Origin: an uncultured virus (IMG/VR IMGVR_UViG_3300042356_001097)
Taxonomy: Duplodnaviria; Heunggongvirae; Uroviricota; Caudoviricetes
Length of the DNA stretch: 20,000 nt
IMG/VR virus record: IMGVR_UViG_3300042356_001097
Strand: one strand, 5' to 3'
Numbering within the stretch: the first letter of the stretch is position 1; every line of letters begins with the position of its first letter. Below are positions 13,409-17,904 of the stretch, piece by piece. The notes under the pieces are model-generated. The model did no database searches and was not told the origin of the DNA. It saw only the letters and a list, made by a program, of their open reading frames with translations. The translations under genes and the position numbers were made by a program.

Positions 13409-15343
13409 TTAAGAAGAAATGTCTACTAGCTCACAATTTCCGTCTGAACTACATGCAAGCGTAGCATTAGTAGATGTGCCATCTTCTGTCTCGTAGAAAG
13501 ACAAGTCTTCCCAGCGAATATCCTTTGGCATCTTTAAAACAAGAGCATCGTATTCTTCCTTTGATACTTCTTGGTACGGAGCCTGCTTGTATGAGTGATC
13601 TGAATGCGGTAGGAATGAAATTCCAGATACCTCATCGAAATGCTTATACACCCAAGCACCGACTTCCATCCATTCATCTTCTTTTACAGAAACTGTAATT
13701 GAAGGCTTGTGCTCACACCATGCACGTTGGTAAACTAACCAAATGTTTAAGTGCTCAATAGCAGTAAGATCGTTTCTAACAATTGCACCTTCTGGTGCTT
13801 TAATTGGGAATGAAAATACGTATGTATCGTTTGGCTTCATAACATCATCTTCTACTGGAATTCCGACTTCCTTTAAAAATGTAGAGATTGGATCTCCTTT
13901 TGCTCCACGAACTGTACGAATATAATATGGAGAATGCCAAGCATGCATTCCTGAAGATACCCCAACCAATTGAGATACTGTTCCTGATGGCTTTACGCAT
14001 GTAATAGCGGCAGACTCAGGAATCCCAATCTTTTCAGCTTCATCTTTATTCTTTGCTCTTGCTGATTCTCTAAGAGTCATCAAGAAAGATTCTAGTGAAA
14101 CAAGATCTTCTTTGCCTGACATAAACTTGTGTCCAAATTGTCCAGTTAAAGAAACACCTAGCAGGCGTTCTTCTTCTGTATTGTCTTTCCAGATCTTGCG
14201 AAGATATTTAAAGTCTGTAAGCGTTGACTGCCACGTTCCAAGAATAGTTGCAAGCTCAACCTTACGTTCAATATCTTTCTTTGTATCATTTTCACGTAGT
14301 ACGACTTCTGAAAGGTTACAAAACTGGTAAGGACGTAAGATAATCTCTGAGCACGGGTTAGTTCCATAGTGTATATCTGGATCTCTTCTTCCATACTTGG
14401 CTGCTTGGGCTTGAGCTGCGGCCACATTGTATATACCTCGTTCTCCTGACTTTGAATCATATAGAGATTTCCATTCTGCAATAAATTGCTCCATGTCTGG
14501 CTTGCGTGAGTACGCAACAGAGTTATTAGACAAAGCACGTTGTGTATTGGCTTCCCACCAGTTACCTGATTTAGCCTGTGCCATCTCAATATCGTTAATG
14601 TTAGAAAGTGAAATCATTGCTGATCGACGAACTCCGCCTACAACAACTACTTCACCGATCTTGCACATAATATCGTGACATTCAATTGGCTTAAGGTTTC
14701 TTCCTGTGGCACTCTTGAACTTTGCAATTGTAAAATCAAATAGATTAATAAGTGGTTGTGGACCCGATGATCTTCCGCCCATTGTCTTAAGTCTTGCTCC
14801 TGCTGGTCTTACCTTAGAAACATCAATTGCTGGAATCTGTCCAGACCAAAGTAGCGCTAGCAACTCACGGTACGCCTTAGCCCAACCTTGCTTTGAGTCC
14901 TCCACTGTAATTACTGTAGTTGACTTTTCCAATGACTCTGGGACGGCAGGAAGTTTATTAATATACTTATACTCAACAGAGAATCCTACACCTGTACCGC
15001 ACATAAGGATATACATTGTTTCATCAAATGAACGTGGTGAATCAACTGGTAGGAAAGCACAGTTATATCCTGCTACATTGTCTCTTTCCAATGCTACTCC
15101 TGAAGTCATAACAGAACGCATTGATGGCATTACATTTCGTTCAAAGACAAACTCTTTTAATTCCGCAACAAGCTTCTCATTTGGAATATAATTATAATTC
15201 TTTTCTAAGTGGCCAAGCATGAAGTTAAAATATCTATCTACTGTTTCACCCCAAGTCTCACGACGATTATCTTCTGATATCCATCTTGCATATCTTGATA
15301 ACGCAATGAAATTTTCGTATGGGTTTGCAATAGTCTTAGACAT
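13409..15343 (-). CDS. nrdJ: Class II adenosylcobalamin-dependent ribonucleotide reductase (monomeric RTPR type)
   Basis: GYNCAF, GTGVGFS, GGVRRSA, TNPCSEI, FCNLSE, VKPSGT motifs and a C-terminal Cys pair CSSDGNC; no beta subunit gene in the window. Confidence 0.93.
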   Translation of the reverse strand: MSKTIANPYENFIALSRYARWISEDNRRETWGETVDRYFNFMLGHLEKNYNYIPNEKLVAELKEFVFERNVMPSMRSVMTSGVALERDNVAGYNCAFLPVDSPRSFDETMYILMCGTGVGFSVEYKYINKLPAVPESLEKSTTVITVEDSKQGWAKAYRELLALLWSGQIPAIDVSKVRPAGARLKTMGGRSSGPQPLINLFDFTIAKFKSATGRNLKPIECHDIMCKIGEVVVVGGVRRSAMISLSNINDIEMAQAKSGNWWEANTQRALSNNSVAYSRKPDMEQFIAEWKSLYDSKSGERGIYNVAAAQAQAAKYGRRDPDIHYGTNPCSEIILRPYQFCNLSEVVLRENDTKKDIERKVELATILGTWQSTLTDFKYLRKIWKDNTEEERLLGVSLTGQFGHKFMSGKEDLVSLESFLMTLRESARAKNKDEAEKIGIPESAAITCVKPSGTVSQLVGVSSGMHAWHSPYYIRTVRGAKGDPISTFLKEVGIPVEDDVMKPNDTYVFSFPIKAPEGAIVRNDLTAIEHLNIWLVYQRAWCEHKPSITVSVKEDEWMEVGAWVYKHFDEVSGISFLPHSDHSYKQAPYQEVSKEEYDALVLKMPKDIRWEDLSFYETEDGTSTNATLACSSDGNCELVDISS

Positions 15344-15400
15344 TTTATAGTACCTTTTTTCTCCGCCTGGCGGTTAATGTAAATTTAGTGTGAAGATCCT

Positions 15401-15409
15401 ATTCTACCA
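15401..15409 (-). promoter_or_regulatory. Extended -10 promoter TGGTAGAAT for nrdJ
   Basis: About 60 nt upstream of the nrdJ ATG; same motif at 13398-13406. Confidence 0.55.
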
Positions 15410-15571: not shown

Positions 15572-16129
15572 ATGCCAATGGAGAAAATAAAACAACAGGT
15601 GAGTGATCTGGCTCACAACATGGTTACAATAGTAATGATAACATTATTTATGTTTCCTGTACAGCCAGTGAATGCACTAGAAGTAAAACCTTTAGTGAAA
15701 ACTGAAGCCCAACTAAAGCAAGAAGTCTTAGATAAGTTCAGTAAAGAAATTTACAAGCCATCTGAGATGCTTACAGACGAAGAGCTAGTATTACTACTTA
15801 AGACTGTAGGATTCGAAGGAGTAGGCCTTAAGAAAGCTTGGTCCATAGCAAAGCGTGAATCTAACGGAAGACCGCTTGCATATAACGGGGATAGGAATAC
15901 TGGAGACGATTCTTATGGAATGTTCCAGATAAACATGATTGGAAATCTCGGTCCAGAAAGACTGGAGAAATTCAACCTAAAGAGTAACAAAGAGTTATTC
16001 GACCCAGTAACAAACGCAGAGATAACGTACTATATGACCAATGGCGGTCAAGATTGGTCCAGCTGGAAGGGTATGACCCCAAAAGCGCAGGAATGGCTAT
16101 TGCGATTCCCGACAACTAAAGAGAAGTAG
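15572..16129 (+). CDS. Lysozyme-like lytic transglycosylase (SLT type) with N-terminal hydrophobic/signal segment
   Basis: IAKRES (catalytic Glu), SYGMFQIN, LFDPVTNA, GQDWSSW motifs; hydrophobic MVTIVMITLFMFP..VNA. Confidence 0.85.
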   Translation: MPMEKIKQQVSDLAHNMVTIVMITLFMFPVQPVNALEVKPLVKTEAQLKQEVLDKFSKEIYKPSEMLTDEELVLLLKTVGFEGVGLKKAWSIAKRESNGRPLAYNGDRNTGDDSYGMFQINMIGNLGPERLEKFNLKSNKELFDPVTNAEITYYMTNGGQDWSSWKGMTPKAQEWLLRFPTTKEK

Positions 16130-16134
16130 GATAA

Positions 16135-16350
16135 ATGAAGATACAGTATGTATCGAAGTATCTCTCTTTATCAAAAGAGGGCCTTGTTCCAGAGCTTTTA
16201 TGCCCCATGGATCAGGGCTCTCTTTATCCTAATCAGGATATTGAAGAGAAAATATTTTTATATTGCCTAACTTGCTCATACAAGAATACAATTGGAATTG
16301 TCGACTATAAGAATCTTGTAAACTTAGTAGATAGAGTAATTAATGAATAA
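16135..16350 (+). CDS. Small putative zinc-ribbon protein
   Basis: CPMD...CLTC motif; AGGA RBS. Confidence 0.7.
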   Translation: MKIQYVSKYLSLSKEGLVPELLCPMDQGSLYPNQDIEEKIFLYCLTCSYKNTIGIVDYKNLVNLVDRVINE

Positions 16351-16483
16351 TGAACGGCAGGAAAGTGCGCCGAAAATAGAACAGACATTCTCAACATATG
16401 AATTTGAGTCAACTGCATTATTAGAAACTGACGCTATGGGGCGTGAGAAGTTTTGGGAAGACCTTGGGAGACAAGATGACTGA
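16343..16483 (+). CDS. Hypothetical protein (46 aa), not in the ORF track
   Basis: MNNERQESAPKIEQ...DAMGREKFWEDLGRQDD*; fills the gap exactly and overlaps both neighbours by 8 nt. Confidence 0.6.
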   Translation: MNNERQESAPKIEQTFSTYEFESTALLETDAMGREKFWEDLGRQDD

Positions 16484-16676
16484 AGAAAAAGAACAACCTC
16501 AAAATATAGAAGATAACCTACCTATGGTGAATTATATAATGCTTCACCGAATTTATGACATGATGACTATCCTGGCAAATAAAGCTGATCCTGATAAAAC
16601 AGCAAAGATGATTGAGTATCATGAACAAGGATATCTACTTGGACCTACTCCTTCATTTACAGCACCTGAAGAATAA
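16476..16676 (+). CDS. Hypothetical protein (66 aa)
   Basis: Likely start MTEEKEQ after GGGAG; NLPMVNYIMLHRIYD...H..GYLLGP.P. Confidence 0.75.
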   Translation: MTEEKEQPQNIEDNLPMVNYIMLHRIYDMMTILANKADPDKTAKMIEYHEQGYLLGPTPSFTAPEE

Positions 16677-16690
16677 GTCGACTAGAATGC

Positions 16691-16719
16691 TTGACATAGA
16701 AAATAATCCATATTACAAT
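16691..16719 (+). promoter_or_regulatory. Near-consensus sigma70/SigA promoter
   Basis: TTGACA-17 nt-TACAAT. Confidence 0.8.
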
Positions 16720-16724
16720 TAAGA

Positions 16725-16820
16725 TGTGTAGGTGATGGCAGCAATGTCTCCCTATATAATGTGTAGTAATACACTAGAAAGTCCCATTCGGATCCGCCTC
16801 TGAATGGGATTTTTTCTTTT
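16725..16820 (+). ncRNA. Candidate small RNA (about 95 nt): two GNRA-capped hairpins plus terminator
   Basis: Between a strong promoter and a terminator with no credible ORF; stems 16725-16758 (GCAA loop) and 16761-16774 (GUAA loop). Confidence 0.65.
16781..16820 (+). terminator. Intrinsic terminator
   Basis: 12-bp stem GTCCCATTCGGA/TCTGAATGGGAT (including G-U pairs) followed by TTTTTCTTTT. Confidence 0.85.
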
Positions 16821-17022
16821 ATATGAAAGATATATATAATATGGGCAATATGGACATATAGTGCAAAAAGTGCGAAAAAAGTGCGCCGTCGAAAGAAGAG
16901 CCATATTCCCATCTGTGATCATTTTTAGAATATGCTTTATAAGCCCTCTATGAGGGTTCTCAAGCCCTAACGGGTCATATTTGGTATCTCCGATACTAAG
17001 ACCCCAGAAAAGGGCGGGAGAA

Positions 17023-17512: not shown

Positions 17513-17623
17513 CTAGTCAACTGTAATATTTAATGCATGATCTGAACAGTAATAGATCATCTTACCTTCTAGAGTTAACTTAGATGTATAAGGGATCTTT
17601 TCGCAATATGTACAATAGTTCAT
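17513..17623 (-). CDS. Tiny zinc-finger protein (36 aa)
   Basis: MNYCTYCEK...YYCSDHALNITVD* (CxxC...CxxH); ATGA overlap with the HNH gene stop. Confidence 0.65.
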   Translation of the reverse strand: MNYCTYCEKIPYTSKLTLEGKMIYYCSDHALNITVD

Positions 17624-17904
17624 TTTGTCTTCTTCCCGTTTTTTCTTATATATGTTCTAGCTCTGTGGCAATTTGAACATACTATCTCACACTTGGCTAT
17701 TTCTTCATCCAAGCGTTTCTTGGATAACGTATTGATTAGTTCCGCCACATTTGAATGCTTAGTTCCACGGACATGATCAAAGTCCATCATATAATAGGGA
17801 TACCAAACCTTACAATCCATACAAGGATTCTTTTCTTTAATATCTTTTAAATAACGTGCCAGAGTTTCTTTTTGTTTCTTGATCGATATCTTCTCTGGAG
17901 ACAT
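17620..17904 (-). CDS. HNH endonuclease family protein
   Basis: CMDC...FDH...CEIVCSNCHRART; TATAAT 6 nt before the ATG. Confidence 0.85.
   Translation of the reverse strand: MSPEKISIKKQKETLARYLKDIKEKNPCMDCKVWYPYYMMDFDHVRGTKHSNVAELINTLSKKRLDEEIAKCEIVCSNCHRARTYIRKNGKKTK

Follow-up and report, generated by a model that had tools for sequence, protein, structure and literature searches.

What does the intergenic DNA behind the first + strand operon of this uncultured phage encode, and what might its product do? The question arises at positions 16691-16819 of the window, by which we mean the whole 20,000-nucleotide stretch that was analysed, where a preliminary description made from the letters alone had proposed an autonomous small RNA read from the + strand. 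The IMG/VR virus record that contains the window is 62,295 bp long, is estimated to be 58% complete and has 39.4% G+C. Structural and tail-fibre genes fill a long block on the minus strand, the last gene of which encodes a class II ribonucleotide reductase (13409-15343); small ORFs of early type begin on the + strand at 15572. The operon directly upstream of the RNA on the same strand (15572-16676) comprises genes for an SLT_3 lysozyme-like protein (15572-16129), a 71-aa Cys-pair protein (16135-16350) and a 66-aa phrog_12271 protein (16476-16676), with a 46-aa ORF between the last two. This arrangement is conserved, the three larger proteins preceding the RNA in 70-73 of 114 loci, and we treat it as genomic context rather than as a demonstrated functional partner. 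The RNA element starts 15 nt past the stop codon at 16676. We considered a put-like antiterminator and a leader of a downstream gene, and rejected them: no + strand ORF follows the RNA for approximately 1.8 kb, and the downstream flanks differ between loci. The window contains no tRNA or tmRNA.

Two other features of the gap after the RNA were recorded. A 94-aa ORF on the minus strand (17620-17904) resembles HNH endonuclease families in their C-terminal part only (positions 144-229 of 252 in phrog_3106), and is possibly the remnant of a truncated homing endonuclease. Just 3' of the RNA, the motif ATAGTGCAAAAAGTGCGAAAAAAGTGCG (16858-16885) contains three copies of AGTGC at intervals of about 10 nt. 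Exact repeats of this motif occur in 17 of 533 loci, several of these 17 being copies of one record, and we found no ORF or RNA family that accounts for it.

The likely host can be approached through relatives. Near-complete relatives (105-120 kb) encode WhiB in three of three cases, as well as a GP88-family protein, and their reductase is 65% identical to Streptomyces phage reductases. No whiB was found on the present 58%-complete record. Because whiB has served as an actinophage marker in freshwater work (PMC6802176) and is present in these relatives, the host is probably an actinobacterium.

That a gene for a non-coding RNA of about 92 nt lies at 16691-16819 on the + strand we consider almost certain. 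Its promoter (16691-16719) joins a -35 box, TTGACA (16691-16696), to a -10 box, TACAAT (16714-16719), across a 17-nt spacer; it scores 11 of 12 against the sigma-70-type consensus and, with one other site, is the best between window positions 15000 and 20000. Transcription is predicted to start near 16724-16726. Hairpin 1 (16725-16758; 34 nt) has 14 bp in the minimum-free-energy fold, three of them G-U pairs, arranged as an outer stem of 8 bp, a bulged U, 2 bp, another bulged U, 4 bp and a GCAA loop. Hairpin 2 (16761-16774), GUGUA-GUAA-UACAC, consists of 5 bp and a tetraloop. Hairpin 3 (16776-16819) is an intrinsic terminator, the strongest of eight detected between 15000 and 20000, with a core stem of 11 bp (16782-16792 with 16799-16809), or 17 pairs when pairing of the A-run with the U-run is counted, and a U tract at 16810-16815. 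It is capped by the apex GGAUCCGCCUC (16790-16800), within which the partition function gives the hexaloop UCCGCC (16793-16798), our proposed seed, a probability of 1.0 of being unpaired. The preliminary description had placed the promoter and the first two hairpins exactly here, with the same spacing, bulges, G-U pairs and loops, and had correctly seen the UCCGCC loop and U tract of the terminator.

The + strand of the element folds at -40.3 kcal/mol, compared with -19.1 +/- 3.0 for 200 dinucleotide shuffles (z -7.06, with none of the 200 as good), whereas the minus strand reaches only -24.5 kcal/mol (z -3.05). Two antisense ORFs overlap the element on the minus strand, one of 76 aa (16682-16912) and one of 56 aa (16752-16922); neither has a PHROG or Pfam match, in agreement with the earlier judgement that no credible ORF is present. 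The element thus has its own promoter, an intrinsic terminator and no conserved ORF, as expected of a self-contained sRNA gene.

Homologues, whose collection and examination for covariation the preliminary description had proposed, proved to be abundant. Among 89 distinct sequences, in an alignment that was fitted to the covariance model and is thereby biased in favour of its structure, 98.1% of cells pair, against 29-47% with the partners slid; 15 of 23 pairs change on both sides (294 cells), and none of 500 shuffles matched the observed pairing and covariation values. An alignment of 30 sequences made with MAFFT only gave 89.6% paired against 32-51% slid, with 8 pairs changed on both sides. 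All seven modelled outer pairs of hairpin 1 and all five pairs of hairpin 2 covary, and so does the lower terminator stem, in which one pair shows an AU/UA swap and divergent members have wholly different sequences. The inner part and loop of hairpin 1 vary by subfamily (GCAA in the window; CCCAC, CCACCA or UUUA elsewhere), hairpin 2 carries GNRA, UUCG, UUAG and other loops, and a few divergent members lack hairpin 2 altogether. The alignment contains 203 G-U cells, and pairing drops from 98.1% on the + strand to 88.0% when the sequences are read as the other strand; G-U pairs and strand asymmetry therefore indicate that selection acts on the RNA of the + strand. The earlier case for a + strand RNA had invoked both G-U pairs and GNRA loops; the GNRA loops are not what the family conserves, since they vary between members. 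Together with the conserved promoter described below, the covariation and the strand asymmetry support the autonomous + strand phage small RNA that had been proposed.

The same strand asymmetry makes it very improbable that selection acts instead on the DNA, either through TCCGCC/GGCGGA as an operator word or through the 76-aa antisense ORF as a coding sequence. The hairpin in the leader of the reductase gene (see below) does form a perfect inverted repeat on the DNA, CCGCCAGGCGG, and 35 of 114 loci have an antisense ORF of 45 aa or more that overlaps the element. Against this, such an ORF is absent from the other 79 and the one in the window belongs to no family that we could match, and the corresponding site at the polymerase gene, to which we return, is a single word with no repeat.

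A further alternative is that the element is no more than the terminator and 3' untranslated end of the operon 15572-16676, and that the promoter hexamers arose by chance in AT-rich DNA. The short distance of 15 nt from the stop codon would suit such an arrangement, as would a variant form of the locus that has no obvious -35 box (typified by L479, below). Two terminator modules lie approximately 1 kb from each other on a 5.9-kb contig, L202. The second one (minus strand of the locus, 1367-1453) consists of the UCCGCC hairpin alone and directly follows a coding gene's stop codon, and the module can therefore serve as the 3' end of an mRNA. The promoter pattern TTGACN-17-TANNNT, however, is kept in 76 of 102 distinct upstream regions, always at a spacing of exactly 17 nt, compared with 8 of 331 control windows. 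Hairpins 1 and 2, moreover, covary, a plain terminator would have no need of an invariant loop, and an RNA-free relative (G006) has an ordinary terminator at the same place. We consequently regard the operon-end explanation as improbable.

The family is widespread among uncultured phages. Searching for exact matches to the terminator gave 8 loci, and a search anchored on hairpin 2 found 119, of which 42 have GGATCCGCCTC just downstream; these 42, the 8 terminator-search loci and the window make a family total of 51 by this route, and the remaining 77 hairpin-2 matches are, among the matches listed, unrelated coding DNA. Anchoring on the apex yielded at least 121 loci (100 distinct sequences) in uncultured phage contigs, and more than 590 relatives were found for the neighbouring protein. 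A covariance model built from 30 sequences recovers every diverse member at 36-108 bits and finds one copy in this record. The preliminary description did not recognise the family, and indeed Rfam 15 gave no match at gathering score anywhere in the 20-kb window. The best sub-threshold match on the element was His_leader (23.6 bits against a gathering score of 49; E 0.067), and 17 diverse members produced two chance-level matches to unrelated families. The RNA belongs to no curated Rfam family, 6C and C4 included. Among cultured phages (50,697 records), blastn with 801 nt and with the 94-nt RNA detected no homologue, the one match being a chance match of 25 nt. The apex pattern was also absent from 185,579 prokaryote species genomes except for three MAG contigs assigned to unrelated phyla. 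These contigs (L354, L355 and L356), one of them 99 kb long, were binned as Saccharibacteria, Silvanigrellaceae and Bacteroidia, and look like phage contigs that were mis-binned; they offer no clue to the host.

Which part of the RNA does the work? The apex GGAUCCGCCUC is identical in all 89 distinct rows of the alignment, and when the commonest stem alone was specified in a scan, with NNNNNN in place of the loop, 119 of 119 matches read TCCGCC; the exposed loop singled out in the preliminary description is the feature under the strongest selection. Loci anchored on the neighbouring protein, found without reference to the RNA, gave the same picture: the RNA was present in 73 of 80, with the same apex in 73 of 73, and of the other seven loci one is cut by the contig end, three have a different hairpin and three have none or too little flank. 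Members with unrelated lower stems, found by the model in other genomes, retain this apex as well. The three loci with a different hairpin (L479, L484 and L490, at about positions 900-1000) have AGAG-UCCGCC-CUCU, with the same loop, after a phrog_12271-like gene, in the same syntenic place; these hairpins, which have no obvious -35 box, are missed by the covariance model at E<=1e-4. No second hairpin with a UCCGCC loop was found in the present record (G000), G002 or G005, so that each of these genomes has one. A conserved, single-stranded loop is what a seed requires, and we think it fairly probable that the RNA acts by base-pairing through UCCGCC.

As a separate observation, one lineage has no RNA at this place. 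Where the cassette would otherwise lie (L357 2680-2895, belonging to G006, and L449, belonging to G042), there is instead a 61-aa ORF with an ordinary terminator, CCCCAGAAAUGGGG followed by a U run.

One property of the apex counts against base-pairing. In 89 of 89 rows the G-C and A-U pairs that close the loop are unchanged, just as the loop is, and pairing of the loop alone does not require this of them. It could be, then, that a protein recognises the whole invariant apex, loop and two closing pairs together, that the RNA is a protein-binding or decoy RNA and that its complementarity to GGCGGA is incidental. The conserved small proteins without known function that adjoin the RNA would lend themselves to such a role, and the association between the RNA and the polymerase site, presented below, is not significant and has an exception in G001. 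On the other hand, the AGAG-UCCGCC-CUCU hairpin at the same place keeps the loop and alters the closing pairs, the exact complement of the loop, rare at other ribosome-binding positions, is conserved at one of them, the small operon proteins are acidic and match no RNA-binding family, and the operon persists in the RNA-free G006. We judge recognition by a protein to be unlikely, and return to base-pairing and its possible targets.

Because this 58%-complete record carries no polymerase gene, the most promising target was studied in two relatives, G002 (complete, 109 kb) and G005 (87 kb, with the window-like type of RNA). In each of them a gene of 1089-1093 aa has GGCGGA 7-8 nt ahead of its start; this gene encodes a polymerase of the DNA polymerase III alpha type (PF07733, PHP and finger domain) and is flanked by primase, SSB and RecA-like genes. 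A family A polymerase was also considered as the replicase; none was found in five large relatives, and the replicase proved to be of DnaE type. GGCGGA lies 3-9 nt before the polymerase start in 37 of 43 distinct upstream sequences (79 loci), and these 37 sites span at least four unrelated upstream contexts and precede ATG, GTG or TTG starts; one form of the polymerase leader is AGAGGCGGAG-N5-AUG. A second sample, which overlaps the first and came from a polymerase-anchored scan that mostly returned the same clade, has GGCGGA in 34 of 43 distinct upstream sequences. Some of the exceptions keep the wobble-compatible words GGCGGG and GGUGGU. The polymerase start region of the relatives therefore holds a conserved complement of the loop, and it is an unusual ribosome-binding word: among 303 gene starts from a naive longest-ORF caller, AGGAG occurs 56 times, GGAGA 47 times, GGAGG 29 times and GGCGGA 6 times.

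Two observations concern the surroundings and the background frequency of this word. In L321, L672 and L695 the ribosome-binding word of the polymerase directly follows an apparent tRNA 3' end (GTTCGAATCCC...), so the upstream neighbour of the polymerase is not fixed. In the present record (G000), GGCGGA is the commonest arrangement of its six letters, and its 48 copies are all on one strand, mostly as in-frame Gly-Gly codons of structural genes; that the word is common inside genes counts against the proposed pairing.

When start regions were ranked for predicted pairing with the apex, that of the polymerase came first of 103 in G005, at -18.2 kcal/mol with nine consecutive pairs, and only 0.4% of background windows are as good. 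The 9-bp match in relatives with the most window-like RNA is of AGAGGCGGA with UCCGCCUCU. The polymerase site of G002 does less well: its duplex energy places it 8th of 160, and the local mRNA fold pairs part of it. Pairing of the apex with polymerase sites is calculated at -14 to -17.8 kcal/mol, compared with -5.8 to -8.8 for a 16S 3'-end consensus. Other genes of G002 that are preceded by GGCGGA (141, 121, 87 and 65 aa) have no homologue in this record or in G005, and a shared regulon beyond the polymerase is therefore not shown. We infer from these comparisons that the RNA pairs with the polymerase mRNA, and regard the polymerase start region as the best candidate target, with about even odds of being the right one.

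Does the RNA occur together with this site? Both are present in 21 records in which both loci could be assessed (G002-G005, G011-G013, G015-G018, G020, G043-G050 and G052). The complete genome G006, which has terminal repeats, has no RNA at E<=1 and carries GGUCGGGG at its polymerase site, and no complete genome lacks the RNA while having GGCGGA at the polymerase. Among records at least 90% complete, nine have the RNA and GGCGGA, one has the RNA and another site, none has the site without the RNA and one has neither; with G006 as the single RNA-free genome, this is not significant (one-sided Fisher p ~0.18, calculated by hand), and the association of RNA and site is suggestive only. All 17 polymerase-bearing fragments examined (47-70% complete) lack the RNA, and the fragments G007-G010, G014, G019, G051, G053 and G054 likewise show no RNA; because the two loci are approximately 50-58 kb apart in G002, we consider these absences uninformative rather than contrary. 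Covariation between seed and target is not seen because both partners are invariant.

The one counter-example is G001 (92% complete), which has the RNA and a canonical polymerase site, GGGAGGA, and for which other targets must therefore exist. They might be sought in the host: the loop could pair with host mRNAs during takeover, phage genes being secondary targets or no targets at all. An early-type gene with a consensus promoter beside the region of small early ORFs would fit such a role, and pairing of the 6C type, through G-C-rich loops, does work in Actinobacteria (PMC6486639). The 185,579 species genomes, however, hold no copy outside the three apparently mis-binned contigs. A regulator directed primarily at the host seems to us rather unlikely, somewhat more so than recognition by a protein, and it would in any case be compatible with control of the polymerase.

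A second GGCGGA lies within the window itself, in the 5' leader of the reductase gene (15362-15367, minus strand), 19-24 nt before the ATG at 15343, and is a possible target site. The word forms the 3' arm of a leader hairpin, CCGC-CAG-GCGG (15363-15373), downstream of a conserved extended -10 promoter of the reductase gene, TGGTAGAAT (15401-15409), both on the minus strand. This promoter and the hairpin recur in 59 distinct reductase leaders, of which 54 keep GGCGG(A/G) downstream of the promoter, and the hairpin (CCGC-NAG-GCGG) is kept by compensating variants such as UCCG-UAAAU-CGGA. Because its own hairpin explains the word, because the RNA-free G006 keeps GGCGGA in the reductase leader and because G038-G040 have lost it and yet keep the RNA unchanged, we have downgraded this site; the reductase leader is possibly a target of the RNA, and the link is ambiguous.

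Taken together, these results lead us to a model in which the RNA is a trans-acting base-pairing sRNA that would control translation of the DnaE-type polymerase, a reading to which we assign a probability of roughly 0.5. Host RNA polymerase would transcribe the RNA of about 92 nt from its own strong sigma-70-type promoter as far as its own intrinsic terminator. Compensatory changes preserve hairpins 1 and 2 and the lower part of the terminator stem, which would form a scaffold, and the working part would be the UCCGCC hexaloop atop the terminator hairpin. Phage mRNAs with GGCGGA in their translation-initiation regions would be the partners of the loop. Foremost among the candidates is that of the polymerase gene, where the loop would pair at the Shine-Dalgarno position, mask the ribosome-binding site and set the level or the timing of polymerase synthesis. 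As to the direction of the effect, we consider it more likely, purely by reasoning, that the RNA would repress translation by blocking access of the ribosome to this site. Since the loop mirrors an unusual ribosome-binding word at the polymerase gene, the RNA probably tunes phage replication.

A bolder version of the model begins from the 3' end of 16S rRNA, which we take to be GGAUCACCUCC. The apex GGAUC-CGCC-UC resembles it with CCUCC changed to CCGCC, and the polymerase GGCGG is the canonical GGAGG altered at the matching central base. The phage might then possess a private ribosome-binding code, an 'anti-Shine-Dalgarno in trans' that would act as an orthogonal replicase switch: the polymerase mRNA would be poorly read by ribosomes and specifically recognised by the phage RNA, which would ignore ordinary host and phage messages. 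Such a switch could even be activating, or a hand-over step, and not simple repression. We offer this version as a speculation that we ourselves find improbable.

The family is widespread and compact and its structure is strongly supported, and we believe that it deserves an entry in an RNA family database. Such an entry would allow the intergenic DNA of these phages to be annotated, and the spurious antisense ORF would no longer be called. To our knowledge, the phages of abundant freshwater Actinobacteria have essentially no known regulatory RNAs, and in listings and abstracts of open papers and preprints we found no account of this RNA or of freshwater-actinophage sRNAs. The proposed rule is a simple one, with one invariant hexaloop set against one unusual ribosome-binding word on a replicase gene. 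If it is true, it would provide an example of RNA-level control of phage DNA replication in a phylum whose sRNA mechanisms are poorly known, as well as a natural seed-target pair separate from the normal Shine-Dalgarno code.

Several known systems invite comparison. The c4 antisense RNA of phages P1 and P7 is cut from a longer transcript and has two seed loops. Like c4, the present RNA is phage-encoded and would act in trans through a loop that masks the ribosome-binding region of one of the phage's own genes. It differs in being a self-contained unit from promoter to terminator with one invariant loop and a target of different function, and the Rfam C4 model matches neither the window nor the 17 diverse members. 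In Staphylococcus aureus, RNAIII and the RsaE-type sRNAs pair with Shine-Dalgarno sequences by means of UCCC loops, one of them on a terminator hairpin, and thereby block initiation. The likeness to the pairing proposed here lies in a C-rich loop, on a terminator hairpin among other places, that is directed against a Shine-Dalgarno sequence. Those RNAs, however, are encoded by the host, belong to another phylum, have other sizes and sequences and carry seeds against canonical GGAG-type sites, whereas the present loop matches the non-canonical GGCGGA. Phage T4 represses the translation of its replication genes through autoregulation by gp43 and gp32 and through RegA; there, as in our model, the synthesis of replication proteins is limited at the ribosome-binding site, the T4 repressors being proteins and the one proposed here an RNA.

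The nearest parallel may be the 6C sRNA (B11) of Actinobacteria, which we take to be Rfam RF01066. Its C-rich loops act without chaperones and its targets include a replication gene, as set out in PMC6486639. On that account the two RNAs would share a short multi-hairpin form, a C-rich loop directed at G-rich mRNA sites and a replication-gene target, and they likely share a host phylum, given WhiB in three of three near-complete relatives. They differ in that 6C is chromosomal and the present RNA is encoded by a phage, with no match of the 6C model to the window or to the 17 members; and its seed is not a run of C but UCCGCC, carried on the terminator hairpin.
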